DNA of 64,000 nucleotides, from assembly GCA_964616485.1 (NCBI GenBank), contig CAZTRB010000005.1, forward strand, positions 11,592 to 75,591, in the 5' to 3' direction. The notes beneath the pieces were generated by a model. It did not search any database and was not told the DNA's origin. It saw only the letters and a list, made by a program, of their open reading frames with translations. Below, piece after piece: positions 9,197 to 42,588 of this stretch. Made by a program: the position numbers and the translations under genes. The first letter of the stretch is position 1, and every line of letters begins with the position of its first letter. Source of the stretch: an uncultured Muribaculaceae bacterium. Lineage in GTDB: Bacteria > Bacillota_I > Bacilli_A > RF39 > UBA660.

Positions 9197-10142
9197 TATT
9201 TCTCCTTTTTAATCCCTTACTCATCTCTTTAATAATGTATATAGGTCTTTTCTTTATCTCTGAATATACCTTCGATAAATAGGCTCCTATTATTCCTAAT
9301 GAGAATAGTTGAACTCCTCCGACGAAGAAGATTAACCAAAATACTAATAACACACTACTTATAGAGACATCTATTATTAAGTTTACCACAATTATAACGA
9401 ATAAGACAAACGCTACGAGAGAAAATAATAGACTCATTACAAAAGGAATCATCAAAGGAACTGTTGAAAAACCAATTATTCCCTCGAAAGCATACACTAA
9501 GAGATTCCAAAAACTCCACTTAGTATTACCTGCCACTCTCTCGACATTCTTATACTCTAACCACTTAGTCTTAAATCCAACGAAAGTAAACAGACCTTTA
9601 GAATAACGATTATACTCTCTCATCGTCAAGATTGAATCGACTACTTGTCTTCTCATCAATCTAAAGTCTCTAGCTCCATCGACCATCTCTGTCTTAGAAA
9701 TTTTATTTATCAACTTATAAAATCTTCTAGCAAAGAAACTCCTAATAGGTGGTTCTCCTTTTCTAGTCGTCCTCCTACAAGCTACGACATCGTAGTCCTC
9801 CTCTTTAATAAGACGATACATCTCTTCTAAAAGACTAGGTGGATCTTGTAAATCAGCATCAAGCGTCGCTACATAATCTCCAGTCGCATGTTCTAATCCC
9901 GCTAAAACAGCACCTTCTTTACCAAAGTTTCTAGAAAGAGAAATATACTCTACTCTCTTATCTTTCTTCTTTAATTCTTTAATATATTCTAAAGTATTAT
10001 CTTTAGAACAATCATTGACAAAGACAAATTCAAAATTAACTTTCTTTAAGTTTTCTGCTATCCTAGTTACTTCTTCATAAAAGTAAGGAAGCGACTCCTC
10101 TTCATTATAACAAGGAACGACTAACGATATTTTTTCTCTCAT
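9186..10142 (-). CDS. family 2 glycosyltransferase, GtrB/CsbB-like polyprenyl-phosphate sugar synthase with C-terminal TM helices
   Basis: LVVPCYNEEESL...NDCSKDNT...DADLQDPP (DxD region) and two C-terminal TM helices, typical of bactoprenol-P glycosyltransferases. Confidence 0.85.
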   Translation of the reverse strand: MREKISLVVPCYNEEESLPYFYEEVTRIAENLKKVNFEFVFVNDCSKDNTLEYIKELKKKDKRVEYISLSRNFGKEGAVLAGLEHATGDYVATLDADLQDPPSLLEEMYRLIKEEDYDVVACRRTTRKGEPPIRSFFARRFYKLINKISKTEMVDGARDFRLMRRQVVDSILTMREYNRYSKGLFTFVGFKTKWLEYKNVERVAGNTKWSFWNLLVYAFEGIIGFSTVPLMIPFVMSLLFSLVAFVLFVIIVVNLIIDVSISSVLLVFWLIFFVGGVQLFSLGIIGAYLSKVYSEIKKRPIYIIKEMSKGLKRRNIDV

Positions 10143-10143
10143 A

Positions 10144-11592
10144 CTATTCTTTAATCCTTCTTTCTATTTTTTCAAAGATTCCCATATACCTAACATAAGC
10201 GTCTTTTTCCAAAGGAATCTCATAATACTTTTTAAGTTCTTTTAACTCTTCACTATTTATCGGGTTAAACTTATAGACTAGTTTTAAAGGGTTAGCTTTT
10301 ATCTCGATAGTATTTTGATTAGATTCTAACTGTTCTTTAATGTATTCTCCCCTAGTCTTCTCAAAATAAGATATTAACAAGAAAGAAGAGATATAATAAA
10401 TTACTAACAAGCTCGTTAATAAGACGACTCTCTTACTAACATTAAATTCTTTATTACTAACAAATATTGCTAAGGAACTAATTAAAAATAAAGTAAAGGC
10501 ATAATTATTACCAAAGTCCCACTCCTGTGATATAAGACTAAAAAGACTAACTGCAATCGAGAAGATAAATAAGACATTTATTAATCTCTTACTCTTTAAA
10601 TCTTTACTATAATAGTGAAGACTTCTAATCAATAAATAAAAATATAATAAGTAATAAAAAGCATAATACCAATTCTCTACTGCAAAGAAACCGTTATAAC
10701 GATTAATTACTAAAGTTAAAGATACTGGCGAATAGAAAGAGAAATTATAAATAAAAGAAAAATACAAGATGATATTAAATAAGACGATAAGTATTCTAGA
10801 GTAAATCCCTTTAAGTCTTTCCCCTAAATAAAAGTTAATCGGTATCGTCGACAATATTATTAATAATATATTTCTAGAAAAAGTATTTTCGATAAAATCG
10901 GGAATACTATTAAAGACATAGTTTATATCGAGAATAAAAATACTCTCTTTAAAGAAACTAAAGACGAATAATAAAGTCAAGAGATGAAAGATTACTACTA
11001 AGAGATACTTTTTATTATAATTACATATTAAGTAAAATATATTTGCTATAACAAAAGAAATAGCGATGAAGATAGACGAGGTAATAACATAACTACCGAG
11101 AAGTATCATCATGACATAATCACGATAGTTTCTCTCTTTATCTCTTATACTAAATAGACTATAGAAATATATAAAACCTAGTAATATCGGTATCGTATAA
11201 CTAAAAGCACCACTTACAGAGACGTAATTATAAGCAAACATATCGACGCTGACTAAAAGCATTAATAAAAATGTTATCACATACATAAACTTGTTCTTTA
11301 CTATTCCTAATAGAGTGTTGGTCCTAAAGACAAACATCGAAGTAACTATCGCTATTATCAGATTAAACCAAACTTTATTATAAGAGAATATATTAATAAA
11401 AAAACCACTTATTACTCTTCCGTCTAAAATAGAAGAATTTTCTAAATTATAAGCGATCCCCTCTTTACCTAAAGAAAAAAAAGCCCAATCTATTCCACCT
11501 AATGGAGATAAAAAAGCCACTATCAAAAAGAAGAAAAAGACATATGTCGTTAACTTATATTTATAATCTATCGTTTTAATTCTATCATTCAT
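10144..11592 (-). CDS. polytopic membrane protein (~12 TM), candidate GT-C-type glycosyltransferase or oligosaccharyltransferase partner of the GtrB-like enzyme
   Basis: 482 aa almost entirely hydrophobic helices with short loops, immediately upstream of and 2 nt from the GtrB-like gene; family not assignable by eye. Confidence 0.45.
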   Translation of the reverse strand: MNDRIKTIDYKYKLTTYVFFFFLIVAFLSPLGGIDWAFFSLGKEGIAYNLENSSILDGRVISGFFINIFSYNKVWFNLIIAIVTSMFVFRTNTLLGIVKNKFMYVITFLLMLLVSVDMFAYNYVSVSGAFSYTIPILLGFIYFYSLFSIRDKERNYRDYVMMILLGSYVITSSIFIAISFVIANIFYLICNYNKKYLLVVIFHLLTLLFVFSFFKESIFILDINYVFNSIPDFIENTFSRNILLIILSTIPINFYLGERLKGIYSRILIVLFNIILYFSFIYNFSFYSPVSLTLVINRYNGFFAVENWYYAFYYLLYFYLLIRSLHYYSKDLKSKRLINVLFIFSIAVSLFSLISQEWDFGNNYAFTLFLISSLAIFVSNKEFNVSKRVVLLTSLLVIYYISSFLLISYFEKTRGEYIKEQLESNQNTIEIKANPLKLVYKFNPINSEELKELKKYYEIPLEKDAYVRYMGIFEKIERRIKE

Positions 11593-11600
11593 AAAGTCTC

Positions 11601-12092
11601 CTATAACTTATCTATGTAATCCTCTATTAATTTTACCATATTTTTAGTATTACTCTCATACTTTTTAGGTTTAAAAGTCTTAGCTTTTTCTAAAGTCTTA
11701 GAAAGTTTATTAAGATCTTTAAGAGGAAGTATATATTTCTTAGAACTTAATTGTTCGATAATCTCTAATTGATGATCGTTATCATGCTCTTTAAACTTCT
11801 TTAGTCTAGGAGCAGCTATTACAACTTTATTATATTCTAATCCCTGTAAGATAGAACCTACTCCACCATGAGTAATTAATAAACTACAATCTTTAATCAT
11901 CTTAGCAAACTCTTCACGAGAAATAAAATCAAAGATTTTCATATTAGGACTCTCATACTTAGTATGACCTGCTTGGACAATTACTTCTTCTTTAATAGTT
12001 CCTTTCTTTATCTCTCTATCTATTTGCTCTAATAAACGTTTAAACTCTTTATCTTGAGTTCCAAGAGTAACTAATATCATTAGTAAATCCAC
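11601..12092 (-). CDS. Alg13-like glycosyltransferase catalytic subunit (GT28 C-terminal domain, Cps14G/EpsF-like)
   Basis: LVTLGTQDKEFKRL...LITHGGVGSILQGLEYNKVVIAAPR matches the GT28 C-terminal fold; overlaps the Alg14-like gene by 13 nt. Confidence 0.75.
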   Translation of the reverse strand: MDLLMILVTLGTQDKEFKRLLEQIDREIKKGTIKEEVIVQAGHTKYESPNMKIFDFISREEFAKMIKDCSLLITHGGVGSILQGLEYNKVVIAAPRLKKFKEHDNDHQLEIIEQLSSKKYILPLKDLNKLSKTLEKAKTFKPKKYESNTKNMVKLIEDYIDKL

Positions 12093-12550
12093 CCCCCATA
12101 AACCGCTTTAGGATAAAGTTTTAACATACTCTCCCATTGAACGATAAATAAATCGGCAAAGAGATAGATTAACCTTCCCGTAATCGTCTTACTCTTACTA
12201 TTAGCAAGCGTCTCGATATAAATAATCTTACTACCGAATATTTTACCGACACAACACATTGGTCCTGCCGTATGAGCACCAGTAGTTATGATTACTTTAG
12301 GTCTAATCTTAAAGTAAAGAAAGAGACTCTTAAAAGAATTATATATTAACTTAAAGGGATAAGTTAATAAATGAGCCTTAGTTCCATAGACTAAATACTT
12401 TACTTTTCCCGGATATTTATCTTTTAAAGTCATATTAGATTTAGTCTTTTCTGTTATTATATAGTGATCATATTTCTCAAACATCGAAGACAACTTCATC
12501 ATCTCAGATAAATGACCACCAGTAGAAGATATAAATAAAACCTTTTTCAT
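12080..12550 (-). CDS. Alg14-like glycosyltransferase accessory subunit (Cps14F/PssD-like)
   Basis: MKKVLFISSTGGHLSEM...IITTGAHTAGPMC...IIYIETLANSKSKTITGRL typical of Alg14-like proteins. Confidence 0.75.
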   Translation of the reverse strand: MKKVLFISSTGGHLSEMMKLSSMFEKYDHYIITEKTKSNMTLKDKYPGKVKYLVYGTKAHLLTYPFKLIYNSFKSLFLYFKIRPKVIITTGAHTAGPMCCVGKIFGSKIIYIETLANSKSKTITGRLIYLFADLFIVQWESMLKLYPKAVYGGWIY

Positions 12551-12557
12551 AAACCAC

Positions 12558-13772
12558 CTATTTTAGTATTTTAAACCAATCTTTCTCTATATTTTTAGCT
12601 AAGTACTTTTGAGATATTTTAAGATTCTCTTTACTTAGTTTTTCTCTATACTTATTATCTTTTAAAATAAGAACGATTTTTTCTTTTAAAAGGCTTAAGT
12701 CTCTATTAGGTATCAAAACATCACTATTATCTTCTAAGACTTCACATATTCCCTTAGCACTATCGAAACCAATAACAGGAAGTCCATAACTAGCAGCTTC
12801 GATTACGACTAAACCGAAAGACTCCGAGAATGATGTAGTTACGAAAAGAGAACTATCTAACATATACTTTTCTATCTTATCTTTAGATAAAAATCCGAGT
12901 AATTCGACATTATCATTTAAAGATAATTTCTTAATTTGTTTCTCTAAATTACTTCTTTCAGACCCATCACCGATTAGGTAAAGCTTAATATTAGGTATAT
13001 TTTCTCTAACCAAAGATAATACTTCTAAAAGGTCAGAGTGTCCTTTTTCTAGAGATAATCTTCCGACATTGATTATGTTATTTGTCTTTAATAGAGATTT
13101 TTTCTTCGGCAATTCGTCTAAGACATTGGGTATATAAAGACACTCTACATTCGTCTTATCTTTATAAAAGTCTCTGAGTTCTCTAGATACTAAGATAAAA
13201 TAAGAAAATCCTTTAATAGAAGATACTAACTTTCTAACATATTTTTTATCGTTATTATGATAGTTGTGATCGGTAACAATTTTTACAATATGTCTATTAC
13301 CATAAGTAGATACTAATCTATTATGGAAGGTCCTAGTAGTAATTACATACTTGCTATTTATTTTAATAATAGCATTAATATTTAAAAGACTTTTTTTAAA
13401 TAAGAGAACAAGAGCTATATATGCTTGTTTTAATATACCAAAGATATTCTTATTAGTTAATTCTTTTTTAAACTCTTCTCTATTAGGTTTAGAATCAATT
13501 AAATATTTTATCTTAATCTTCTTATCAAAATAAAACGCGGGTTGTTCTAGCAACTTATAAGTAGTTATAATCTCTATCTCAAACTTTTTATCTAGCATCT
13601 TACAAAGAGAAGACAAGTACTTTTCGATACCACCATATCCTAAATGAAGAGCTAATATCGTTATCTTATTTTCTTTTAGTTTTCTCTTGTTATATTTTAA
13701 AATTAAAAACACTAAAAATAAGATAATAACAAAAGACAATAATACTAATAACAGTTGCAATATATCACACAC
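12558..13772 (-). CDS. family 4 glycosyltransferase (GT-B, glycosyl transferase group 1) with N-terminal TM
   Basis: C-terminal GT-B motif NVGRLSLEKGHSDLLEV...TSFSESFGLVVIEAASYGLPVIG (E-x7-E region). Confidence 0.8.
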   Translation of the reverse strand: MCDILQLLLVLLSFVIILFLVFLILKYNKRKLKENKITILALHLGYGGIEKYLSSLCKMLDKKFEIEIITTYKLLEQPAFYFDKKIKIKYLIDSKPNREEFKKELTNKNIFGILKQAYIALVLLFKKSLLNINAIIKINSKYVITTRTFHNRLVSTYGNRHIVKIVTDHNYHNNDKKYVRKLVSSIKGFSYFILVSRELRDFYKDKTNVECLYIPNVLDELPKKKSLLKTNNIINVGRLSLEKGHSDLLEVLSLVRENIPNIKLYLIGDGSERSNLEKQIKKLSLNDNVELLGFLSKDKIEKYMLDSSLFVTTSFSESFGLVVIEAASYGLPVIGFDSAKGICEVLEDNSDVLIPNRDLSLLKEKIVLILKDNKYREKLSKENLKISQKYLAKNIEKDWFKILK

Positions 13773-13813: not shown

Positions 13814-13847
13814 AGCAAGAAAAAAGATATCTTTTTCAAGATATCTT
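13814..13847 (-). terminator. intrinsic terminator after the giant pilin-like gene
   Basis: Two copies of the self-complementary decamer aagatatctt (13824-13833, 13838-13847) form a 10-bp stem with loop tttc; T-run on minus strand (plus agcaagaaaa); stem includes stop codon. Confidence 0.55.
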
Positions 13848-16800
13848 ATCCCCAATTTTCACAACCACAAGCTGCTGTTCTACAAGAATTATTTCCTCCT
13901 ACACAAGTACTATAAGTGTATAGACAATTATTCCATCCACATGCACTATGTTGACAATAATAGTATCCGGCACATCCACAGCAATCATTATAACAGGTTG
14001 CAGCTTCCTCACCAGAAACACAACATGTTGTCGAAGTTTTATACCATGTTTGGCCACCCGAACTAGGTTTGCTACTTGCACACTTAGTTCCGCACCCATA
14101 ACCTCCTGTGTTTTGGTAACATTCATAGATATTTCCTTTAGTTTTACAATATGTTCCGCAACAAGAGTAACTAGTACATCTTTTATTTCCAGTACATCCG
14201 CATCCGGCAGTATAACAAGAATTATATCCTCCAACACAAACGGACGGGTTACCTGTTAAACAAGAATTCCATCCACAATTAGCATGTTGACAACTCTTAT
14301 TGGTAACACAACTCGATGTTATAGAACAAGTTCCTGTATTACCCGCTCCATCTGTAACCGTGTATGTCTTTGTACCTTTAACATTTGAATCATTATATGT
14401 AGCTGGAGATACTCCACTTGCATTATCAGAAGTTGTAACTTTTACGGTTATTCCATTAGCTCCATTCGCTGTTTTAACAGCAGTACAAGTAGGATTAACT
14501 GTATCTCTTTTTATCGTAAATACATTAGATGCAGCAGATGCATTACCTGCATTGTCAATTGATCTTACATAGAAATTCCAATTCCCATCCCAGTTTATCG
14601 TCCATGGATTTGACATTGCTGTCCAATTTGCAGCATCATGACTATACTGATAACTAGCAATTCCAGAACCAGTTCCGTCCGAAGATGATGCAGTTATTAC
14701 AACATTAGATTTTGTCCAAGTGCCTGAAGTATAAGAACCTAGATTGATCGTTGGTTTTGAAGGTTTTGTTGCATCTCTCTTTATTGTTACGACATTTGAA
14801 TTATCACTTATGTTACCAGATTTATCTATAGCCCTTACATAAACGTTCGTAGATATATCTGAACTAATTGTCCATGGATTCGACATCGTCGTCCATCCCG
14901 ACGTCCCATTAGTACTATATTCATATCTATCTAAGTTAGTATCCGATGAACTCGCTGTTATGACAATATTTTGATTTGACCATGTATTAGATGTATATGT
15001 AGTACCATCTGCTTTTTTCAAGGTTAAAGTTGGTTTCGACGGTTTCGTCGCATCTCTTTTAACATTAAAGACGTTTGACACATCACTTATATTACCAGCA
15101 CCATCAGTAGACCTTACATAGTAATTACTTTCGACATCTGTACTAATTGTCCATGGATTTGCCATATTTGTCCATCCTGAAGTTCCATTAACACTATATT
15201 CATATTTACTTATTCCTGAAATATTATCAGTTGAACTTGCCGTTACGACTACATTGCCAGAGGTCCATGTCCCTGAAGTATAAGAACCTAAATTGATCGT
15301 CGGTTTCGATGGTTTAGTAGCATCCCTTTTGATAACTACGGCATTAGATACATCACTAACATTTCCTGAGGAATCGATTGCTCTTACATAGATGTTTGTC
15401 GAAGTATCCCAGTTAATCGTCCATGGATTTGTCATAGCCATCCATCCCGATGTTCCGGTCGTACTATATTGATATCCAGCTAAGTTATCATCAGTTGAAC
15501 TTGCTGTAATGATTATATTTTGATTTGACCATGTATTAGATGTATAAGTAGAATTGTCTGCTTTCTTCATTGTCAATGTTGGTTTTGATGGTTTCGTCGC
15601 ATCTCTTCTAACAATAAATGGATTTGAATTATCACTTACGTTACCAGCACCATCAGTCGATCTGACATAGTAAGTTTTATCGGTATCGAAGTTTATCGTC
15701 CATGGATTTGACATCGTCGTCCATCCTGAAGTTCCATTGTTACTATATTCGTATTTGCTTATTCCCGAAATATTATCAGTTGAACTTGCCGTTACGACGA
15801 CATTACCAGAAGTCCATGTACCAGAAGTATACGAACCTAGATTAATCGTCGGCTTCGATGGTTTAGTACCATCTATTTTTACCGTTTGGTTGTTCGGACA
15901 AGTAACACAGTTTCCTGCTCTATCACAAACCTCGCCCGGTCCAGCCGTCGTCGTATTTATATCACTAGTATAAGGTTTAGTAATTGTCGTATTTACACAA
16001 CCACTACCACTATCACTACAAGTACCAATTATATTTACAGTCGTCTTACTCCATGCAGAACTTCCACCACTACTTACACAAGTTGGTTTCGTCGTATCGA
16101 TCGTATCGACGACTACCGCTTTATTAGTAACATGTCCAGCTTGGTCCTTAACCCACACATAATATGTACCATTATCAGAAGCTATATTTGGAACACCAAT
16201 TCCAAAACTAGTTCTTGCCGATATAGCGGTAAATGTCGGTTGTGTCGTCGAACTCTTATTTATACCGTAACCGATTATTCCTGAATTAGTATCTGTTCCG
16301 GTAAATACTATCGTTCCGTTAAGTCCGTCTTGACCAGTATCGATTATCGTCGAGTACGCTACATCCCAACTTACTGAAGTACCAGAACCCGTCAAGTAAA
16401 CGTGTCCGAAAGTCGAGAACGTTCCCGAACTACCCGCTTTTTGAATATAGATATATTCTGCCCAATCTCCAGTTCCAGCTTGTGGAGTGATCCAGTAGAC
16501 GCTTGAACCTGTACCGGTAGAATTAGAAGCTCTTTGAATAGTATACCCAACTGGTATCTTTGCAATTATTCTATGAGCATATACAGCATTAGCTCTCGAA
16601 GTTACAGTTTGAACATAACCTCCTAATCCAGGAGAACTGACACCATTTGTCGTTATTCTCATAACGTATGAACCATATGGGTTAGATTGAGCTACTCTAG
16701 CGTGAGTAACAGTACCATTTCCACTATTATTATATACGCTAAAGTTATTTGTCCCAGAAGCAAACGTCGGATCTTTGAATAACGGAGTCCCTGATATTGC

Positions 16801-18897
16801 TTCTGATATAACCGGAGCATTTTTATCTATTCTTACGATTTGGTCAGCCTGGCAAGTAGTACAGTTTCCTGCATTATCACAAACTTGTCCAGGTGATTCA
16901 TTAGTCGAATTTATATTAGAAGTATATGTTTTCGTTACCGTCGAATTCACACAACCACTATCAGCGTCATTACACGTTCCAGTAATCGTGACATTCGTCG
17001 TTTTCCATGTAGCGCTTCCACCACTATTTATACATGTTGGTGGTTCGTTATCGGCAGTTATCGTTTGGTGATACCATCCGCCACTATTTGGCGATTGAGT
17101 TATGACGTTACCAGCATTATCAACTAGTCTCGTATAAACGGTATATACTCCTCCAGGTAAACTAACAACGTGTTTATTTTGTCCAGTAATAGATGTAATG
17201 CCACCTACAGCAACACCGTTTCTTTCCATCTTGACTTGGAACTCTTTAATACCACTCAAATTATCAGCAACCGTAATTGTCAACGTTTGATTAGCACTAT
17301 ATACTCCCGTTAATAAGCTATAACTTGCAGTAGGAGCCGTCTTGTCGATTCTAGAAATCGTTACTGATGAAGGATCAGATGATAAACCGACAACGTTTCT
17401 CGTACGAACTTGAGCATTCGTTACATTTGACGAATAAATATTATAATTTGTCGATTGCCAAGAAGCGCCATCATTAAACGAATACTCAGTCGTTCTAACT
17501 AATCCAGCTCTTGGAATCAAGTTAACTTTTACATTGTTCTTAGTCCAGATACCTGGAGAAGCAGCGACTAAATCAATTCTAGAAACATTGTAAGATACAC
17601 CACTTAGTGCTCCTAAAACTAATCTAAAGTTAGAGTATTGTCCAACCGAAGGTAAAATAAACTCTATGTCTCTAGTACCTTGAATCATTAATGCTGATAC
17701 TGAGAGTTCATTCCCATTTTGATCTTTAAAGTAGACTCTACCCGTCGTCGTCGTTGGAATATTAGTATTTAAAGTCACAGTTAATTTCTTAATACCATTA
17801 AATGTCGGATACGAAGCAGTACCAAACGTTATAACTGGGTTTGTCGTAGTCGTCGTTAGTATTGTACCCGCTAAATTTAACCCCGAAAGAGTATATTCAT
17901 ATTGGTTAGGGAACAATTGATATGCATACTCAACATCAAATTCTGGTTTTGGAACACCCACTCTTACGTCGATTGAACAAATCCCCTCATTACCCGCTTC
18001 GTCTTTAACATAACCTACGACTGTCGTAAGTCCCATATCTAATTTAAGACTATCTTTTTTATTATAATCAATATTCTTTATACTAGTACCAAGTCCATAA
18101 GTTAAAAGTCCACTATCAGCATCATCTTTAGTATCGAACTTAACATAAACGTCTCCCGAATACCACCCTAACGCTTCTAAGTTTCCGCCATCTCTAATAA
18201 GTGTACAAGTTGGAGGAGTCTTATCGACATATACTTTTACCGGACAACTAGTTTGATTTCCACTCTTATCAACTATATTAATAAAACTCTCAGTAGTAGT
18301 CGTACCAAATGTCTTAGAGAATCTAGCTAAACGACAACCACTAGTTTGGTCACTACAACCAACACTAATTGTTCTATTTTCCTTAGTCCATGTAGTAGAT
18401 TCACCTATGACACTACCACATACCGGATTATCATTATCAGATTCATACTTAGAACAAGCCGAACCTTCAGTAGAATAATTTTCACAATACAAACACGCTC
18501 TATATTCGTAGTCACCACTAACTTTGCTTACCTCAACATAACTAAGTAAACTATTACAAAATCCATCTGTTTCCGGATCTTTTAATTCATCAGAGTAACC
18601 TTTTTCAATAACATCACTCAAATAGACAATAGATCTATCTCCATCGCCTGGTAAATTACAAGTGTAATCATTATTAGCAATACAATCAACAACCATGTTA
18701 TTCGTAGCTGTTTGCATATTCTTTTCATAAGCTAAATAAGTATTATCCTTACTACTTCCAATATAATTAGAAATAGCCGGAACTGTAATGATTGCCAATA
18801 TAGCAATTATCACGATAACGGCGATTACTTCTATTAAAGTAAACCCTTTCTTTTTCTTGGCTTTTTCCAAAATTTTACTAACAGTTTTCTTTCGCAT
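13846..18897 (-). CDS. giant (1683 aa) modular type IV pilin-like / pseudopilin-like surface protein: class III prepilin signal, Cys-containing modules, 5 tandem Ig-like repeats, Cys-rich C-terminal module
   Basis: MRKKTVSKILEKAKKKKG then FTLIEVIAVIVIIAILAIITVPA (prepilin peptidase site G/F, Glu at +5, hydrophobic alpha1 helix); AAGGAG RBS 8 nt upstream of ATG 18895-18897; promoter TTGACT-17-TAAAAT at 18932-18960 lies inside the ORF-track N-terminal extension, so start at 18897 preferred. Confidence 0.8.
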   Translation of the reverse strand: MRKKTVSKILEKAKKKKGFTLIEVIAVIVIIAILAIITVPAISNYIGSSKDNTYLAYEKNMQTATNNMVVDCIANNDYTCNLPGDGDRSIVYLSDVIEKGYSDELKDPETDGFCNSLLSYVEVSKVSGDYEYRACLYCENYSTEGSACSKYESDNDNPVCGSVIGESTTWTKENRTISVGCSDQTSGCRLARFSKTFGTTTTESFINIVDKSGNQTSCPVKVYVDKTPPTCTLIRDGGNLEALGWYSGDVYVKFDTKDDADSGLLTYGLGTSIKNIDYNKKDSLKLDMGLTTVVGYVKDEAGNEGICSIDVRVGVPKPEFDVEYAYQLFPNQYEYTLSGLNLAGTILTTTTTNPVITFGTASYPTFNGIKKLTVTLNTNIPTTTTGRVYFKDQNGNELSVSALMIQGTRDIEFILPSVGQYSNFRLVLGALSGVSYNVSRIDLVAASPGIWTKNNVKVNLIPRAGLVRTTEYSFNDGASWQSTNYNIYSSNVTNAQVRTRNVVGLSSDPSSVTISRIDKTAPTASYSLLTGVYSANQTLTITVADNLSGIKEFQVKMERNGVAVGGITSITGQNKHVVSLPGGVYTVYTRLVDNAGNVITQSPNSGGWYHQTITADNEPPTCINSGGSATWKTTNVTITGTCNDADSGCVNSTVTKTYTSNINSTNESPGQVCDNAGNCTTCQADQIVRIDKNAPVISEAISGTPLFKDPTFASGTNNFSVYNNSGNGTVTHARVAQSNPYGSYVMRITTNGVSSPGLGGYVQTVTSRANAVYAHRIIAKIPVGYTIQRASNSTGTGSSVYWITPQAGTGDWAEYIYIQKAGSSGTFSTFGHVYLTGSGTSVSWDVAYSTIIDTGQDGLNGTIVFTGTDTNSGIIGYGINKSSTTQPTFTAISARTSFGIGVPNIASDNGTYYVWVKDQAGHVTNKAVVVDTIDTTKPTCVSSGGSSAWSKTTVNIIGTCSDSGSGCVNTTITKPYTSDINTTTAGPGEVCDRAGNCVTCPNNQTVKIDGTKPSKPTINLGSYTSGTWTSGNVVVTASSTDNISGISKYEYSNNGTSGWTTMSNPWTINFDTDKTYYVRSTDGAGNVSDNSNPFIVRRDATKPSKPTLTMKKADNSTYTSNTWSNQNIIITASSTDDNLAGYQYSTTGTSGWMAMTNPWTINWDTSTNIYVRAIDSSGNVSDVSNAVVIKRDATKPSKPTINLGSYTSGTWTSGNVVVTASSTDNISGISKYEYSVNGTSGWTNMANPWTISTDVESNYYVRSTDGAGNISDVSNVFNVKRDATKPSKPTLTLKKADGTTYTSNTWSNQNIVITASSSDTNLDRYEYSTNGTSGWTTMSNPWTISSDISTNVYVRAIDKSGNISDNSNVVTIKRDATKPSKPTINLGSYTSGTWTKSNVVITASSSDGTGSGIASYQYSHDAANWTAMSNPWTINWDGNWNFYVRSIDNAGNASAASNVFTIKRDTVNPTCTAVKTANGANGITVKVTTSDNASGVSPATYNDSNVKGTKTYTVTDGAGNTGTCSITSSCVTNKSCQHANCGWNSCLTGNPSVCVGGYNSCYTAGCGCTGNKRCTSYSCCGTYCKTKGNIYECYQNTGGYGCGTKCASSKPSSGGQTWYKTSTTCCVSGEEAATCYNDCCGCAGYYYCQHSACGWNNCLYTYSTCVGGNNSCRTAACGCENWG
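13849..14328 (-). other. Cys-rich C-terminal module (~160 aa, >30 Cys) with internal duplication
   Basis: CQHANCGWNSCLTGNPSVCVGGYNSCYTAGCGC ... CQHSACGWNNCLYTYSTCVGGNNSCRTAACGC; CC and CGC clusters. Confidence 0.7.
14506..15873 (-). repeat. five in-frame tandem coding repeats (~273 bp, 90-92 aa each) alternating two subtypes
   Basis: Protein units D[AG]TKPSKPT...TASS[ST]D...GTSGW...NPWTI...YVR[AS][IT]D.[AS]GN[VI]SD..N....[IV][KR]R repeated 5 times; DNA-level recurrence of gtccatggatttgacat near 14594, 14876, 15420, 15705. Confidence 0.85.
15862..16089 (-). repeat. 6-Cys module copy 2 (PTCVSSGGSSAWSKTTVNIIGTCSDSGSGCVNTTITKPYTSDINTTTAGPGEVCDRAGNCVTC)
   Basis: Same Cys spacing as copy 1; sits directly before the tandem Ig-like repeats. 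Confidence 0.7.
16813..17040 (-). repeat. 6-Cys module copy 1 (PTCINSGGSATWKTTNVTITGTCNDADSGCVNSTVTKTYTSNINSTNESPGQVCDNAGNCTTC)
   Basis: ~75-aa module repeated again at 15862-16089 with recognisable DNA similarity. Confidence 0.7.
18826..18897 (-). other. class III (prepilin-type) signal peptide and N-terminal pilin helix
   Basis: Basic 18-aa leader ending in Gly followed by FTLIE and 20 hydrophobic residues. Confidence 0.8.
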
Positions 18898-18931
18898 AAT
18901 AAAGCTCCTTGTATTATCTTTTATATATAAC

Positions 18932-18960
18932 ATTTTAATATCTTTATACATAATAGTCAA
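18932..18960 (-). promoter_or_regulatory. candidate promoter of giant pilin-like gene (TTGACT-17-TAAAAT)
   Basis: Minus-strand ttgact (plus agtcaa 18955-18960), 17-nt spacer, taaaat (plus atttta 18932-18937); about 30 nt upstream of RBS/ATG. Confidence 0.4.
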
Positions 18961-19043
18961 GAAAGATTTAGTCGTTAAATCTTTTAGTTTTTTGTAAAAA
19001 GTTGTCTAATTCCTTATAAATTATGTAAAACTTTCCTAGCAAG

Positions 19044-19072
19044 TAGACACTATATACAATATATTATATAAT
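19044..19072 (+). promoter_or_regulatory. candidate divergent promoter of dockerin-GH73 operon (TAGACA-17-TATAAT)
   Basis: tagaca 19044-19049, 17-nt spacer, tataat 19067-19072, then GGAGGTG RBS before ATG 19106. Confidence 0.4.
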
Positions 19073-19105
19073 TATATTACTAATAATGGCATGGAGGTGT
19101 AACAA

Positions 19106-21121
19106 ATGAAGAGATTTTTATTCGTGATTCTTTTGATATTGCTTCTTTTTAATAGTGGAACAGCACATGCAGAAATTATTAAGACTGGTCGGGCTATAGC
19201 CGATGTTGGGCTTAGAATTAGAGCTACTCCCTCTACTAGCGGAACACAATTAGGAACGATACCCTATGGAACGATAGTTAGAATCATCGGTGAAGCGAAT
19301 GGTTCGGGATGTAACGATCCTTGGTTTCAAGTAATTTACTCTACTGGTAATAGTAATATAAACGGTTATTCTTGTTCTACTTATATAACGGAAATTACGG
19401 AGTATGATACTGAAGAGAATACGCCTACAACACCACCAGTAAATAGCGAGGACTTCGAAGCCTACTTAACTTCACAAGGATTCCCAGAAAGCTACAAAGT
19501 CAAACTAAGAATTTTACACGAACAACATCCTAATTGGATATTTGTCGGTATAAAAGTAAGAGAGTCTTGGCAAACGTCTTTAAATCTTCAAGGCGAAGAT
19601 GGAAGAAGTACATTAAATGTTAATGCGGCAAGAAAGGCTTTGGGGCAAGAGGGATATTTATCGACTGCAGCGGGACACTATAACTATGAGACTGACACTT
19701 TTATTCCTAAAGATGGTACTTATTGGTTTCAAGCTAACTCAGATGCTATTGGATATTACCTTGACCCAAGAAACTTCATGGACGAGAAAAATGTTTTCAT
19801 GTTCGAAAGTCTTTTACAAAACGATGCTATTCATACTAAATCAGTAGTCGACGGGATCTTGTCGAGTGACTTCATGAAACAATATTCTAATCATTTCATG
19901 AAAGGTGCAAGAGACTACAACGTTTCTGCTACGCACTTAGCATCACTATCTAGACAAGAAGTAGGAATTACTAACGGTAACATTGTTACTAACGGAAAAG
20001 CCGGAGTATTATCAGACGGAGTTAACTATAACGGTTACTATAACTTTTTTAATATCGGAGCATCATCATCGGGAGATCCGAAGTTAAAATCGTTACAAAG
20101 CGCTAAAGCTCGCGGCTGGAATTCACCTGAGAAATCAATCGTTGGTGGAGCGGCTTTTATATCTAGTGGTTATATTAATGCCGGACAATACACGGCTTAT
20201 CTTCAAAAGTTTAACGTCGATCCTAATGCTACTAAAGGAATATGGCATCAGTATATGACTAACATAGCGGCATTATCTTCGCCGGCAATTACGACATATA
20301 ACTCATATAATAATCTCGGTTTCATAAACCATTCATTTATATTCTCGATTCCAATATTTACTAATATGCCAGAAAGCACTTCGTTACCTCCCTTAGGTAA
20401 CCCAAATAACTGGCTAAAAGAAATAAAGATAAATGGTATCGCTTTATCTAGTTTCTACGGTGGTACCACTAATTACACCATCGATATTCCTTACGAGGAA
20501 GAGATTACAGTAGAGGCTAAAAAAGTAAATAGTAACGCTACTGTATCAGGAACTGGAACAAAAGCCTTAACGGAAGACAAAACCACTTTAACGATTAAAG
20601 TCACTGCTCAAAACGGAAGCGTTAAAAACTATACGGTAACAGTTAATCGTGGGATAAAAGACGATCCTAACTTAGAGATAGATCTTCTATTAAAAGATGT
20701 CTTAACTGATAGCAAATACAAATACGATAGTAAAAATCTTTGGGGAATAACTCTAGGAACTAGCGTTAAGAGTCTTACTAGTAAAATAAAAGGAAAATAT
20801 AAAACAGTAAGTGTAAATATAAAAAATAAAGACGGCAATACTAAAACAGACGGTGTCATAGTTACAGGAGATAAAGTAACGATAACGACTAAACAAGAAT
20901 CTACTACTATCGAAGTAATAATCTTTGGTGATACTAATGGAGACGGATACATCTCGGCAATCGACATCTTAAGCGCTCAAAAACATATCCTTGGATATAC
21001 TACTCTTTTAGGAACTAGTTTCAAAGCGGCAGACATAAATAAAGACGGTGTCATATCAGCTTATGACTTACTACAATTTCAAAAACACGTCTTAGGTTAT
21101 ACTAATATAAGCCAATCATAG
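19106..21121 (+). CDS. secreted peptidoglycan hydrolase: signal peptide, SH3b, GH73 N-acetylglucosaminidase domain, cadherin-like beta-sandwich domain, C-terminal type-I dockerin
   Basis: Signal peptide MKRFLFVILLILLLFNSGTAHA; SH3b GRAIADVGLRIRATPSTSGTQLGTIPYGTIVRII; glucosaminidase-like core aa ~230-400; cadherin-like NNWLKEIKINGIALS...TIKVTAQNGSVKNYTVTVNR; dockerin FGDTNGDGYISAIDILSAQKHILGYT...AADINKDGVISAYDLLQFQKHVLGYT. Confidence 0.8.
   Translation: MKRFLFVILLILLLFNSGTAHAEIIKTGRAIADVGLRIRATPSTSGTQLGTIPYGTIVRIIGEANGSGCNDPWFQVIYSTGNSNINGYSCSTYITEITEYDTEENTPTTPPVNSEDFEAYLTSQGFPESYKVKLRILHEQHPNWIFVGIKVRESWQTSLNLQGEDGRSTLNVNAARKALGQEGYLSTAAGHYNYETDTFIPKDGTYWFQANSDAIGYYLDPRNFMDEKNVFMFESLLQNDAIHTKSVVDGILSSDFMKQYSNHFMKGARDYNVSATHLASLSRQEVGITNGNIVTNGKAGVLSDGVNYNGYYNFFNIGASSSGDPKLKSLQSAKARGWNSPEKSIVGGAAFISSGYINAGQYTAYLQKFNVDPNATKGIWHQYMTNIAALSSPAITTYNSYNNLGFINHSFIFSIPIFTNMPESTSLPPLGNPNNWLKEIKINGIALSSFYGGTTNYTIDIPYEEEITVEAKKVNSNATVSGTGTKALTEDKTTLTIKVTAQNGSVKNYTVTVNRGIKDDPNLEIDLLLKDVLTDSKYKYDSKNLWGITLGTSVKSLTSKIKGKYKTVSVNIKNKDGNTKTDGVIVTGDKVTITTKQESTTIEVIIFGDTNGDGYISAIDILSAQKHILGYTTLLGTSFKAADINKDGVISAYDLLQFQKHVLGYTNISQS
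20924..21103 (+). other. type-I dockerin module (two Ca-binding F-hand repeats)
   Basis: Duplicated D.N.DG.I.A.D...(K)H.LG segments matching dockerin consensus GDVNGDGKVNSTD...LKRYILK. Confidence 0.8.
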
Positions 21122-21130
21122 GAGGACTTT

Positions 21131-22546
21131 ATGAAAAAAATCTTTAAACCATTTACAATGGTTTTCCTTTTTACAGTGATGTTTTTGTTTAATAATAACG
21201 TCTTGGCAGCTAACTTAAATGTCTCGATAACCTCGAGTACTAGTAGAGCGGTAGTTGGTAACAATATTACTTATACGGTTAGAGTGTCTTCTAATGCTAA
21301 ATTTGGTAATATTCATTATAGATTAGAATATGACACTTCTAAGTTAACTCATGTAAGTGGAACACTAAATAATTTTGATTTAAATGTTATCGATAAATAT
21401 TCTGCTACTTACACTTTTACTTTTAGAGCAAAAGCAAGTGGTAATGCTAGAGTAACGTTCGTAATCAACGAAGCCTTAGAATTAAATAACAATTCTTTTA
21501 ATTATAATACTAGAACCAATAAAGATATAACGATCATAACTCAACAACAATTAGAAGCTAGCTATAGTAAAAACAACTACCTATCATCTTTAAAAATAGA
21601 TAATTTTGAAATGACACCGGCTTTTAATAAAGATACTTTAGAATACTCGATAGAATTAGAAAACGATGTTAAATCAATAAATATTAGCGGTACTAAAGCA
21701 GATTCAACAGCATCAGTCGAAGGTTTGGGTGCACATGAATTAATAGAAGGACCAAATAAAATAAATATAAAAGTTACTGCCCAAAACGGTGCCTCTAGAA
21801 CATATACGATAAATGCAACGGTAAAAGAATTAAATCCCATTATCGTAACTGTCGACGGCAAAGAATATAATGTCGTTAGAAAAAAAGACCTAATAAAAAA
21901 ACCTAATAGCAAATACGAAGAGACGATTATACAAATAAATGAAGAAGATGTCCCAGCTTTCATAAACGAGACGACTAAAGTAACATTAATCGGGCTTAGA
22001 GATGAAGAGGACAACATTTCTTTATTTAGTGTTAAAAATGATACGTATATTCCTTACCAAGAATTCGCTTTTAGTAGTATAATATTTACGGAAGAAAATT
22101 TAGACGATCTTCCTAAAGGTTATACTAAAACTAAATTAAAACTCGAAGAAGTAGAAATAGACGCTTATCAAGATAACTCTAACTTAAATTTCTACCTAAT
22201 AAAAGGAGTGAACATTGAAACGGGAATAACTTCCCTATATCAATATGATAGTAAAGAAAACACTCTTCAAATATATAATGATTCATTAGCTAAACAAAAT
22301 AAGGAATTAACTAATAAGAATAATATTTATCTTTATACTATAATTGGTCTAATAGCACTCATAGCTATATCTTCCGGAACGATATTAGTAAAGACTTTAA
22401 AAAATGAAAAACCTAAAATAAAAAAAGAAGAGAAGACCGACAAAAAAGTCAAAGAAAAAGTAGAGGAACCGAAAGAACCTATCATAGAAGAAGAGAGTCT
22501 AACAAAACAAATAAAGAAAATGAAAAAAAATAAAAAACAATCTTAA
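21131..22546 (+). CDS. type-I membrane protein with signal peptide, cohesin-like N-terminal module, cadherin-like domain, C-terminal TM helix and Lys/Glu-rich cytoplasmic tail
   Basis: Signal MKKIFKPFTMVFLFTVMFLFNNNVLA; NLNVSITSSTSRAVVGNNITYTVRVSSNAKFGNIHYRLEYDTSKLTHVSG resembles cohesin (..YDp.vLe.vsv..G); cadherin-like YLSSLKIDNFEMTPAFNKDTLEYS...INIKVTAQNGASRTYTINATV; TM IYLYTIIGLIALIAISSGTILV; 10-nt gap to upstream dockerin gene. Confidence 0.55.
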   Translation: MKKIFKPFTMVFLFTVMFLFNNNVLAANLNVSITSSTSRAVVGNNITYTVRVSSNAKFGNIHYRLEYDTSKLTHVSGTLNNFDLNVIDKYSATYTFTFRAKASGNARVTFVINEALELNNNSFNYNTRTNKDITIITQQQLEASYSKNNYLSSLKIDNFEMTPAFNKDTLEYSIELENDVKSINISGTKADSTASVEGLGAHELIEGPNKINIKVTAQNGASRTYTINATVKELNPIIVTVDGKEYNVVRKKDLIKKPNSKYEETIIQINEEDVPAFINETTKVTLIGLRDEEDNISLFSVKNDTYIPYQEFAFSSIIFTEENLDDLPKGYTKTKLKLEEVEIDAYQDNSNLNFYLIKGVNIETGITSLYQYDSKENTLQIYNDSLAKQNKELTNKNNIYLYTIIGLIALIAISSGTILVKTLKNEKPKIKKEEKTDKKVKEKVEEPKEPIIEEESLTKQIKKMKKNKKQS

Positions 22547-22561
22547 TATACTGGAGGAATT

Positions 22562-24667
22562 ATGAAAAAGAAAAAGATCAAATACCAAAATATATTCACA
22601 ATACTTTGTATCTTAAGCAGCTTATATCTAATCCAATCTATCTACTTATTTTCACAAATAGAAACAGTTATTAGATACTCTGTAATTGGTATTTTAGTTC
22701 TTTTCGACTTCTTTATATTAATTAAGATGTTTTTCTTAAAGACTAAAAAAACTATTATATATATTATAGTCTTAGTCTTTTTTAGTGGAATATATATATT
22801 CTTAGGATACAATTTAAATAGAATATACTCTTATTTTACTAACTTAAATAAGACGATTACTTATTCGACTAGTTTAGTTACCTTAAAAAGTACTAAAGAT
22901 GTCGATCTAATAACACTTAAGAATGCTAATATAGGTCTTATCGATGATCCGACTTCTGAAGATGGACACATCTTAGCACAAGAGATAATAAAGAAAGAGA
23001 GTTTATCTAAAAACAATAATATTATCTATAGGCATTCATATACTGAACTTATATTAGATTTATATGATAAAGACTTAGACTATATTTTTCTTCCTAGTTC
23101 TTATGTCGATATCTTTAGTACGATCGAAGGTCTTGAAGATATAGAAGATAAAATTAAGACTATTCTAACGACAGAGATGGAAAAGACTAAAGAAGAGGCA
23201 CAACTATTAGGAGATCCTAAGAATATAGATGAACCATTCACGATGTTATTAATAGGTATTGATTCAACGGCTGATGGTATTCAAAATGCCGACTCATTTA
23301 ATGGAGATTCTCTTATGGTACTTACTTTTAATCCTAAGACGATGACTGCTACGATGTTAAGTATACCTAGAGATACGTATGTTCCAATAGCATGCTTTCC
23401 AAATAAAATAGAAAATAAGATAACTCATTCTGCTTCTCGTGGTACAAGTTGTGTTATAAATACTATTCAAAACTTATTGGATATAAAAATAGACTATTAT
23501 ATGAAGATTAACTTTACTGGTCTAGTCGAACTAGTCGATGCCGTCGGTGGAGTCGAAGTCGATGTTCCTTATAGTTTTTGTGAACAAAATAGTAAGAGAA
23601 AATTCGGTAATAGTACTATCTATGTAAAAGAAGGTTTAAGGACACTTAATGGTGAAGAGGCCTTAGCATTATCTAGAAATAGAAAGAATAATTATGAATA
23701 TTGTTCTAAAGAATGGACTAAGGGAAATAGAAGTGACTTTGTAAGAGCAGAGAACCAACAAAAAGTAGTTCAAGGAATATTAAATAAAGTAAAAGGTTAT
23801 ACTTCTATTAACAAAATAGAAGAGTTATTAAAAATAGTCTCTAAAAACTTAGATACTAATATGAGTGAGAAGACGATTTTCTCATTCTATAATATTGCAA
23901 AGGATGTCATGATATCATCGTCTAATTCTGATATACTATCTATTCAAAGATTAGAGATAGTCGGATGGGGACAAACGATATACGATGAGACATCTAAGTT
24001 ACAGTTGTGGAATTATGTTCCAAATAAGAGAAGTACCGAAGATGTAAAAGAAGCTATTAAAATAAATTTAGGACTGAAAAAACATGAGTTAATCAAGACT
24101 TTCACTTATTCTTGGAAAGAAGAATATACTCAAAAGATTCCAGGTAAAGGGCCTTATAGTATATATACTACTTATGACTTGCTAAAAGACTTTACTAACA
24201 TGAATATAACGGATGTCGAGCTATGGGCTGAAAAAAACGACATTACTTTAGTCATAGAAGAAGTAGAAAAGGTCGGTTACAAAAATGGTACAGTCGTTAA
24301 TCAAGAGTATCCAGTTAATAAGAGATTAGATTTAATACCCGATAGAACATTAAAAATAGAAGTAGTCAAGAATAAAGATACTAAAATAGACTGTTTAAAA
24401 GACGAGGAAAACATTATTTGTCTAATACCTGACTTTATCGGTAAAACTAAGAAAGACGTAGCTCTTTGGGGAAATAAGTTCTCTAATCTAGTAGATGTTA
24501 AATATGTAGAAGTGGAGTCTGAAGAAGAAGAGAATACGATAATAGATCAAACGATTAAAGGTATTACGATAAAAGAATTACTTGAGAATAAAGAGAGTAT
24601 CACTTTTACTATCGTTAAGAAAAAAGAAATAATACCACCTATCGAAGAAGAAATGGAAGAAGAATAA
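22562..24667 (+). CDS. LytR-CpsA-Psr (LCP) family cell-wall glycopolymer transferase with extended C-terminal region (701 aa)
   Basis: N-terminal TM helices; LCP core LLIGIDSTADG...GDSLMVLTFNPKTMTATMLSIPRDTYVPIAC...HSASRG...YYMKINFTGLVELVDAVGGVEVDVPYSF; ~280-aa C-terminal extension. Confidence 0.8.
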   Translation: MKKKKIKYQNIFTILCILSSLYLIQSIYLFSQIETVIRYSVIGILVLFDFFILIKMFFLKTKKTIIYIIVLVFFSGIYIFLGYNLNRIYSYFTNLNKTITYSTSLVTLKSTKDVDLITLKNANIGLIDDPTSEDGHILAQEIIKKESLSKNNNIIYRHSYTELILDLYDKDLDYIFLPSSYVDIFSTIEGLEDIEDKIKTILTTEMEKTKEEAQLLGDPKNIDEPFTMLLIGIDSTADGIQNADSFNGDSLMVLTFNPKTMTATMLSIPRDTYVPIACFPNKIENKITHSASRGTSCVINTIQNLLDIKIDYYMKINFTGLVELVDAVGGVEVDVPYSFCEQNSKRKFGNSTIYVKEGLRTLNGEEALALSRNRKNNYEYCSKEWTKGNRSDFVRAENQQKVVQGILNKVKGYTSINKIEELLKIVSKNLDTNMSEKTIFSFYNIAKDVMISSSNSDILSIQRLEIVGWGQTIYDETSKLQLWNYVPNKRSTEDVKEAIKINLGLKKHELIKTFTYSWKEEYTQKIPGKGPYSIYTTYDLLKDFTNMNITDVELWAEKNDITLVIEEVEKVGYKNGTVVNQEYPVNKRLDLIPDRTLKIEVVKNKDTKIDCLKDEENIICLIPDFIGKTKKDVALWGNKFSNLVDVKYVEVESEEEENTIIDQTIKGITIKELLENKESITFTIVKKKEIIPPIEEEMEEE

Positions 24668-39059: not shown

Positions 39060-39073
39060 CTTGACCTCCTATT

Positions 39074-40213: not shown

Positions 40214-40310
40214 GGTCCTCCTATTATAAATATTATATACTACAACAAAGAAAAAAAACAACTTTTACAGTCTTTTGTACTGTTTAATTGTTTTTTTGTA
40301 AACTTATCTT

Positions 40311-40826
40311 TTAACGAACTACATAGTCAAGTGTCAGCCTCAAGTCTTTTGTTAAGTCTTCAGCGGTAACTTCTTCAGTCATATCTGGATTATAATAAGC
40401 TATAACTTCAAATAATTTGCTTTGTCCGACTTGTAATACTTCACCGGCTTCTATTCCGTTTATTGTATAAATAATAAATCCTTCTCCATAGTCTTTAGGA
40501 TTTAATTCAATGGCATTTAATTTAGCATCTAGGTTTCCTTGATTTCTAACATTAACAACATATTTAACGGTATCACCAGGATCGACAAAAGTAGCGCTAA
40601 ATATAGCGGTCTTAGAATCTAAAACGGTCGATTCTAAACTTTTTCCACTTCCCTCAGTCTCTGTGCTATTAATTGCCGTTATCGCGACGTCAAAGTCAGG
40701 GTTAACGATCGTAGCACTTCCTTTTATTTCTAACTGCGTAGATAAAAGAGCATACCCTACTGACACAAAAACAAGTGCAACTAGTAAAGCTCCAATCATC
40801 GTATTTTTCTTATCTTTATTGCTCAT
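40311..40826 (-). CDS. secreted/anchored protein, possible TasA/camelysin-like SipW substrate (alternatively an effector immunity protein)
   Basis: Signal/anchor MSNKDKKNTMIGALLVALVFVSVGYALLSTQLEIKGSA; VDPGDTVKYVVNVRNQGNLDAKL resembles TasA LKPGDKLTKDFQFENNGSLAIK; position directly upstream of SipW-like peptidase. Confidence 0.4.
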   Translation of the reverse strand: MSNKDKKNTMIGALLVALVFVSVGYALLSTQLEIKGSATIVNPDFDVAITAINSTETEGSGKSLESTVLDSKTAIFSATFVDPGDTVKYVVNVRNQGNLDAKLNAIELNPKDYGEGFIIYTINGIEAGEVLQVGQSKLFEVIAYYNPDMTEEVTAEDLTKDLRLTLDYVVR

Positions 40827-40880
40827 ATAATCCTCCTATAATAAATTTTAATATATATGGCTTTTATTGTCAATTATTCG

Positions 40881-41948: not shown

Positions 41949-41964
41949 TTAATCACATCCTTTA

Positions 41965-42587: not shown

Positions 42588-42588
42588 A

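Follow-up and report, generated by a model that had tools for sequence, protein, structure and literature searches.

The window considered here is a whole stretch of 64,000 nucleotides (nt) from contig CAZTRB010000005.1 of an uncultured bacterium, and the subject is one gene in it, which encodes a protein of 1683 amino acids (aa) with a prepilin-type N-terminus (the giant protein). The open reading frame at 13846-18897, proposed earlier by a model from the letters alone (the sequence-only reading), is real; it lies on the minus strand, which that reading left unstated. The mature protein is computed to have 1665 residues, a mass of 177 kDa and an isoelectric point of 5.6. The gene and the features of its N-terminal part are as follows.

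13846..18897, minus strand: coding sequence of the prepilin-type giant protein, 1683 aa (open reading frame read directly; ATG at 18897-18895, TAA stop at 13848-13846)
18844..18897, minus strand: leader peptide, residues 1-18 (MRKKTVSKILEKAKKKKG), basic, with Gly at -1
18778..18843, minus strand: hydrophobic alpha1N segment, residues 19-40, with F+1, E+5, A+14 and P+22 (Pfam N_methyl and TIGR02532)
18448..18843, minus strand: pilin module, residues 19-150, with a helix at 21-74, a small beta-sheet and six conserved Cys

The N-terminus reads MRKKTVSKILEKAKKKKG|FTLIEVIAVIVIIAILAIITVPA, with the junction KKKKG|FTLIEVIAVIVIIAILAIITVPA. It has a basic leader, Gly at -1, Phe at +1, Glu at +5 and about 20 hydrophobic residues, i.e., the class III prepilin signal that the sequence-only reading had described. 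That reading proposed a check with hidden Markov models, which the sequence passes: Pfam PF07963 (N_methyl) gives 29.3 bits (gathering 21.2) and TIGR02532 gives 27.8 bits (cut-off 16.3). The named pilin equivalogs ComGC (NF040999), GspG (TIGR01710), PpdD (NF007862) and ComGE (NF041013) were also considered; the scores of 17.9-31 bits are far below the cut-offs of 49-138 and come from the shared N-terminal helix only, so the giant protein is none of these.

When a profile was built from residues 1-155 of 25 family members, it matched type IV pilins of solved structure: the Geobacter pilin (the best match, E 5.5e-10), S. sanguinis PilE1 (7e-9), PilA, MshA and D. nodosus FimA over about 100 residues. 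The AlphaFold (AF2) models of residues 1-155 (predicted local distance difference test, pLDDT, 86.9) and 1-520 (pLDDT 86.4) present a 54-residue alpha1 helix (residues 21-74) followed by a small beta-sheet. The pilin fold, an extended helix of about 50 residues packed on an antiparallel sheet, is thereby seen in both models, as the sequence-only reading would have it. Foldseek with the isolated head (the pilin module) returned no match. Four tandem pilins of about 165 aa adjoin a PilB-like ATPase in a related metagenome-assembled genome (MAG), L018, and one of them shares 36% identity with the head (E 2e-15).

In an alignment of 25 sequences (A1), built without requiring Glu at +5, the residues F19 (+1), E23 (+5) and P40 (+22) are invariant, while G32 (+14) and Y45 (+27) are nearly so. 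Among 171 large family members, F+1 is kept in 97%, G+14 in 87%, P+22 in 65% and Y+27 in 61%. In type IVa pilins, such conserved positions serve cleavage and allow alpha1 to pack in the filament core; the conserved residues at +1, +5, +14, +22 and +27 would not be needed by a protein that is simply anchored in the membrane. Position -1 in 64 large motif-bearing homologues is G (56) or A (8) and nothing else, and prepilin peptidases cleave after G or A (PMC10191384).

These data bear directly on the suggestion that the N-terminus is an uncleaved signal-anchor, i.e., a type II membrane anchor that resembles a pilin by chance and on which no prepilin peptidase acts. It would agree with the failure to find a peptidase gene in or near the window, and with P0003, a relative that has the central module (see below) but a different N-terminal hydrophobic segment lacking Glu5. 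Nevertheless, we consider such an anchor very unlikely, considering the residue at -1 in all 64 homologues, F+1 in the large members, E23 (invariant in A1, though not required for its building), the motif scores above curated cut-offs, and the at least 6,870 close homologues of the A24 peptidases of this lineage. The first 150 or so residues are a genuine type IV pilin module.

What follows this module is arranged as below.

16810..18429, minus strand: conserved beta-sandwich stem, residues 157-696, including the Cys modules 157-232 and 617-696 (AF2 model of residues 1-520, pLDDT 86.4)
16093..16809, minus strand: central module of about 240 aa, residues 697-935, a candidate effector
15868..16092, minus strand: third six-Cys module, residues 936-1010, 55% identical to module 617-696
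14506..15867, minus strand: five tandem Ig-like repeats, ABABA, about 90 aa each, residues 1011-1464 (NCBIfam NF047446 and Pfam Big_7)
14317..14505, minus strand: last Ig-like module, residues 1465-1527 (motif DGAGNTGTCS, read directly)
13849..14316, minus strand: C-terminal Cys/Gly-rich module, 156 aa, residues 1528-1683, with 28 Cys and 23 Gly

All the parts named by the sequence-only reading (six-Cys modules, a Thr-rich beta region, five Ig-like repeats and a Cys-dense terminal module) are present. In total, about 15 beta-sandwich modules lie behind the pilin module; at 3.5-4.5 nm per module, we estimate the length of the stalk at about 50-70 nm. The three Cys modules of about 75 aa (residues 157-232, 617-696 and 936-1010) include two with the pattern C-x19-C-x6-C-x23-C-x5-C-x2-C. 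The stem also contains a DUF7743-like module (residues 517-600), and the Thr-rich beta region falls within residues 318-450; Thr and Ser together account for 25% of the giant protein. Foldseek with the model of residues 1-520 finds its best matches among the stalks of giant adhesins (Aureispira GhpA, Salmonella SiiE and the Marinomonas ice-binding adhesin).

Pfam, NCBIfam and PDB-sequence searches gave no match for the central module (697-935). Two copies of it stand in tandem in P0003 (2718 aa) and a single one is present in the prepilin-type protein P0047, and for this reason we regard it as a shuffled module. In the Ig-like repeats, the A copies are 84% identical in protein and 83% in DNA (identities were measured by hand) and carry xDxxGNxS motifs. 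The OmpL47-type barrel model NF047446 matches in six stretches with 147.8 bits (cut-off 40), the sixth of which probably falls in residues 1465-1527; Pfam Big_7 also matches. An orthologue of the Leptospira OmpL47 (NF047441) was considered and rejected: the score is 79.8 bits against a cut-off of 250, and the repeat domain is all that is shared. Tandem Repeats Finder reported no DNA arrays within the giant gene, because the repeats are too diverged (59-83% nt identity) and their true period of about 550 nt (an AB pair) exceeds the limit of the program.

The C-terminal module has an internal repeat, CQH..CGWN.C...C.GG.NSC.TA.CGC, at either end. It has no match in Pfam, NCBIfam or PDB sequences, and none of the 219 proteins compared contains a similar module. 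Pfam and further searches detected neither a vWA nor a lectin signature in the giant protein. Two familiar types of adhesin were also tried: a sortase-anchored LPXTG adhesin does not agree with the C-terminus, which ends ...AACGCENWG and is devoid of LPXTG, and a tip adhesin of the PilY1/PilC type does not agree with the pilin N-terminus or with the Pfam matches, which include no PilY1-type domain.

The composition corresponds to the definition of a modular pilin sensu Raynaud et al. 2021 (an IPR012902/N_methyl module together with at least one extra domain that is not pilus-specific); here the extra domains are Big_7, the OmpL47-type barrel repeats, the DUF7743-like module and further beta-sandwich modules. 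The sequence-only reading held that a pilin-like protein of this size was not described. With respect to the literature this is correct: a survey (2021) of more than 1,200 modular pilins names a protein of 860 residues as the extreme (PMC8179133), so the present one is about twice the size of the largest noted, and our literature search found no description of the family to which it belongs. It is not correct if understood as a unique case. Judging from the matches below, the 1683-aa protein is a member of a sizeable family in public databases, unnamed or automatically named, and not a singleton.

A protein search gave 79 large homologues. The class III motif is present in at least 64 of them; about 36 resemble the giant protein in the first 500-700 residues, and with them in the stem (157-696), at 35-48% identity and diverge thereafter. 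An exhaustive profile search with the 520-residue N-terminal module returned 55,735 proteins at E<=1e-3, many of them presumably on the strength of the generic pilin helix or Ig-like parts alone. At E<=1e-10 the number falls to 5,607, and at E<=1e-30 there are 778 representative clusters. The class III motif stands at the start of 67 of the 68 best full-module representatives, the sole exception being a truncated gene call. These 68 proteins have 503-3792 aa (median 1105; 45 have at least 1000), and five of them are at least as long as the giant protein. LPXTG was found in the last 60 residues of none of the 68. The homologue genes stand alone beside housekeeping genes (e.g., rpoBC, rpsL and mraZ), and arrays of paralogues are frequent, with three in L002 and five consecutive in L004.

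The latter is the densest array: at L004 1222-22100, five N_methyl proteins (933, 1738, 1614, 1200 and 1165 aa) follow one another on one strand, and a sixth, small N_methyl gene starts at 24413. In P0002, P0030, P0013, P0026 and P0046, the G/A|FTLIE site is preceded by lysine-rich leaders of 43-85 aa (38-49% K+R), far longer than the leaders of type IVa and IVb pilins.

The closest homologues, P0004 (1152 aa) and P0005 (1395 aa), come from one locus in two samples (L095 10001-13459 and L096 10001-14188). They are 92% identical over about 1086 residues, differ in repeat length, and then continue into unlike C-termini (Cys-rich ephrin-receptor/TNFR-like in one, Flg_new repeats in the other) and unlike downstream genes. 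The comparison of orthologues for repeat-number variation, which the sequence-only reading had proposed, thereby reveals alleles of different repeat content; the pattern fits a conserved carrier with exchangeable cargo.

With respect to the machinery, no prepilin peptidase, ATPase (T2SSE) or platform protein (T2SSF) was found in the window or in about 10 kb beyond either end, which were reached by walking via the flanking genes. The absence of a peptidase from the window, noted earlier, is therefore confirmed and extends to the other two components. No second prepilin motif occurs in the window in any frame. The evidence for an A24 prepilin peptidase comes from related MAGs. In L027, L054 and L089/L090, a T2SSF protein, an A24_N_bact/Peptidase_A24 peptidase and a pilin of 120-130 aa follow dnaG-sigA-trmK, which is a conserved place; a PilB-like ATPase is present in L018 and a CpaF-like one in L069. 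The A24 enzymes are abundant in the lineage, to judge by the number of homologues of those in L054 and L027 given above.

The locus in L027 (4725-9606) and L089/L090 (8033-13978) is conserved in further respects. Its T2SSF protein (643-651 aa) has an N-terminal extension of about 250 aa, and it includes the A24 peptidase, a pilin of 128-129 aa and a DUF87/HerA-like ATPase (593-595 aa), joined in L089 only by a DUF2207_C protein. None of these loci (16-21 kb) contains a canonical T2SSE (PilB) gene. The HerA-like ATPase may belong to an unusual machinery, or it may simply be a neighbour with no relation to it.

We favour, at about an even chance, the reading that the product of the gene is a giant, modular minor pilin of the type IV kind, processed by a PilD-type peptidase and presenting a long adhesive stalk, in an uncultured gut member of the Bacilli with a small genome. 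Its pilin part draws on the motif scores, the profile, the AF2 models, the likeness to the L018 pilin, the packing residues and G or A at -1; further support comes from the stem that resembles fibre adhesins, the constant stem with variable cargo, and the T2SSF, A24 and small-pilin genes or ATPases in related MAGs. The adhesin role, cleavage by the peptidase and location at the pilus tip we infer. The hydrophobic alpha1N segment would insert the protein in the membrane, and an A24 prepilin peptidase encoded elsewhere in the genome would cleave after Gly18 and methylate Phe19, as the motif suggests. The pilin module (19-150) would then act as the carrier: its alpha1 helix would dock with the organism's ordinary pilins (120-170 aa). 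The most probable place for this is a tip complex that primes a type IV filament, since a subunit of 177 kDa would not pack along the shaft. The remaining 1500 or so residues would form an extended chain of about 15 beta-sandwich modules that crosses the wall and projects beyond it; the variable modules in its distal part (the shuffled one of 240 aa and the Cys-rich knob) would be presented there and may bind a host, dietary or microbial ligand. On this scheme, the conserved N-terminal 520 residues would be the carrier and the stem, and the C-terminal parts would be swapped among paralogues and alleles.

Several points weigh against this reading. The machinery is missing from the window and its surroundings, and pilus genes hardly ever accompany the giant gene or its relatives; their tandem arrays (up to five genes) are unusual for minor pilins of one filament; and we know of no type IV machinery that handles a pilin this large. 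The searches revealed no domain in the giant protein with a known binding specificity, so the word adhesin is taken from its architecture alone. Besides, the giant protein retains Glu5, which is missing from the subunit that caps known tip complexes (PMC10191384); were it located at the tip, it would not be the cap.

The same points lead to the main rival, a surface fibre that is processed by PilD and does not polymerise. In it, the class III signal and alpha1N are the export signal and anchor, the stalk spans the wall unaided, and the pilin module would have become the usual anchor, in this lineage, of numerous giant surface proteins. We find this possible, though less probable than a minor pilin. 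The genes scattered beside housekeeping genes and the arrays of 2-5 paralogues without machinery speak for it, as does the size and diversity of the family (the 778 clusters); the lack of LPXTG in the 68 full-module members means that another anchoring route is needed, and the stalk would be long enough to cross a Gram-positive wall on its own. There is also an archaeal precedent, since some substrates with class III signals, e.g., sugar-binding proteins, are not pilins (PMC6098224). On the other hand, the family-wide conservation of E+5, G+14, P+22, Y+27 and a folded head is hard to explain without pilin packing, and the head is homologous to the ordinary small pilins of the lineage. We consider both the uncleaved anchor and a purely structural role in the envelope (discussed below) less likely than this fibre.

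A related and more far-reaching proposal, which we hold as rather doubtful, is that the pilin module has turned into a general carrier for a fast-diversifying repertoire of giant fibres (up to 3792 aa, arrays of up to five, exchange of C-terminal cargo) processed and displayed by a reduced machinery. Subject to the same doubt, that machinery would have as its conserved core the set of genes found in L027 and L089/L090, where an A24 peptidase and a single small pilin accompany the extended T2SSF and the HerA-like (DUF87) ATPase and a canonical PilB is absent from the vicinity. If true, this would be a new filament-derived system of surface display in monoderms and not an ordinary pilus with an odd minor pilin.

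On the minor-pilin reading, PilB (vWA) and PilC (lectin) of S. sanguinis type IV pili are among the closest known systems. They share with the giant protein a monoderm host, a class III signal with Glu5, a small pilin module bearing grafted modules not related to the pilus, and a proposed adhesive role exposed at the tip (PMC8179133, PMC9934059, PMC10191384). However, PilB and PilC are of about 50 kDa, have one grafted module and are encoded in a pil locus, whereas the giant protein has 177 kDa, about 15 modules, a stand-alone gene and multiple paralogues; it extends the "grafted module" design (PMC8179133, PMC10191384) to about 3.5 times the size. CofB/TcpB (type IVb) and GspK, unlike it, have 30-55 kDa and are encoded within machinery operons, and GspK lacks Glu5. 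PilY1/PilC of type IVa pili is likewise a modular adhesin above 100 kDa with variable modules on a conserved carrier at the pilus tip (PMC8179133), a position that the giant protein may occupy; but PilY1 is not a pilin, and its carrier is a C-terminal beta-propeller instead of an N-terminal pilin module. SiiE, the Marinomonas ice-binding adhesin and Aureispira GhpA have a similar long rod of tandem Ig-like beta-sandwiches with distal ligand-binding modules (candidates in our case); they use type I secretion or other routes, are anchored differently and have no prepilin N-terminus. The archaeal non-filament class III substrates (sugar-binding proteins of Sulfolobus) are also large surface proteins with a pilin-type signal and genes away from the assembly genes (PMC6098224), but they belong to another domain of life and the PibD peptidase branch and have no giant multi-module stalks.

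The many functions of the otherwise simple type IV filaments are explained by modular pilins, of which those characterised have about 50 kDa. A family of 100-400 kDa with a conserved pilin carrier raises the questions of whether a Gram-positive type IV machinery can handle a 177-kDa subunit, whether such proteins are located at the tip or anchored in the membrane, and whether the pilin signal is now a general route of surface display. The hosts are abundant uncultured small-genome gut Bacilli, and such variable strain-specific proteins are likely to be their main interface with the host, diet and other microbes; in another uncultured clade of the gut, pilin-like proteins are already linked to immune effects in the host (PMC11680825). 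The interest is in the family and its biology and not in this one gene.

The expression signals of the gene are as follows.

18905..18910, minus strand: Shine-Dalgarno sequence AAGGAG, with a 7-nt spacer to the ATG (read directly)
18932..18960, minus strand: promoter-like TTGACT-17 nt-TAAAAT, 10 of 12 consensus positions (consensus match only)
13817..13847, minus strand: intrinsic terminator, a perfect 10-bp hairpin AAGAUAUCUU-GAAA-AAGAUAUCUU followed by UUUUUCUU (sequence reading and folding)

The sequence-only reading ascribed to the gene a promoter, a ribosome-binding site and a terminator of its own. The second (AAGGAG) and the third stand: the A/U-rich hairpin at 13847-13824, located at the stop codon with a U tract behind it (regional z = -2.5), is a genuine terminator. 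A simple terminator scan found none at the giant gene, because it requires G-C pairs. The first does not stand equally well, since sequences of the TTGACT-17-TAAAAT type are no commoner here than in shuffled sequence; as a promoter of the giant gene it is plausible from its letters. In the public annotation, the protein (P0001, 1701 aa) begins 18 codons upstream, at the ATG 18951-18949, and its leader would have 36 residues. This is probably a start-codon miscall: the upstream ATG has no Shine-Dalgarno sequence and the promoter-like element is located downstream of it, so the ATG at 18897 chosen by the sequence-only reading is better. The local G+C content at the gene is raised (37-39% versus about 30%), which prompted the question of recent horizontal transfer; the content at third codon positions (GC3) is 0.235 against 0.22-0.29 in the neighbours, and codon usage is native. 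Since GC3 equals that of the neighbours, the increase reflects the amino-acid composition, and recent transfer is rejected.

The window itself is part of a low-G+C Firmicute chromosome (recA, RNase Y and J, PBP1, LCP, LtaS, gatCAB, PFOR), and its RecA is 84-88% identical to RecA of uncultured MAGs. The relatives of the giant protein, among the matches listed, are almost all from gut MAGs labelled as uncultured Bacilli, Tenericutes, Erysipelotrichaceae, "Mycoplasma sp. CAG:956" or "Clostridium sp. CAG:524"; the best of these matches in reference genomes has 38% identity. L010, L015, L017, L027, L036 and L052 are deposited as "uncultured Muribaculaceae" or "Candidatus Scybalousia" (Bacteroidales in the NCBI taxonomy). 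These labels are probably unreliable, because the gene content of L027 (ribosomal genes, sigA, dnaG, pilin) looks Firmicute-like.

Directly downstream of the giant gene, a glycan-synthesis cluster (9186-13772, minus strand) encodes GT4, Alg14-like and Alg13/GT28_C-like proteins, a polytopic membrane protein of 482 aa without a Pfam match, and a GT2 protein with C-terminal membrane segments. The polytopic protein was considered as a pilin glycosylase and rejected, as it has no similarity (E 0.57) to the one beside the L054 pilin. Divergently from the giant gene (19106-24667, plus strand) lie the genes for a 671-aa SH3_3, cadherin-like and dockerin protein, a cadherin-like protein and an LCP protein with a PASTA domain, a trio that is syntenic in the relatives L091-L094. 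A type I dockerin is unexpected in small-genome gut Bacilli, and there is no obvious cohesin nearby.

In such surroundings the giant protein might be a structural envelope protein, i.e., a wall-spanning spacer or an S-layer-like component tied to the adjoining glycan and wall genes, and no adhesin. The neighbours are all envelope genes (GT4, Alg14/Alg13-like, polytopic and GT2 downstream; SH3-dockerin, cadherin-like and LCP-PASTA upstream), and a protein with so much Thr and Ser could be O-glycosylated, which is conceivable. We nonetheless find this role improbable in view of a close relative (L091/L092, RecA 86% identical) with the conserved order PBP1 - recA - RNase Y/J - LCP - cadherin-like - SH3-dockerin. 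There, about 200 bp (L091 20571-20768) separate the SH3-dockerin gene from the GT4 gene (686 aa), in place of 13846-19105 of the window; the flanking envelope genes are kept and the giant gene is absent. Since the region is otherwise collinear, the giant gene is accessory at its site and not core, and was gained or lost recently. The candidate promoter region and terminator of its own also disagree with a structural role, and alleles that differ in C-terminal modules and repeat numbers are what one typically sees in surface proteins that bind ligands.

Elsewhere in the window (38019-43482, minus strand), a cluster encodes two small WXG100-like proteins (Pfam 24 bits, below the cut-off), further proteins of 297 and 355 aa, a protein of 171 aa with an N-terminal signal that looks like the TasA/camelysin type, a DUF5305 protein, and a polytopic protein of 395 aa with a C-terminal signal-peptidase S26 domain (a SipW-like fusion). 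This cluster could be a second, TasA-like fibre or secretion locus.

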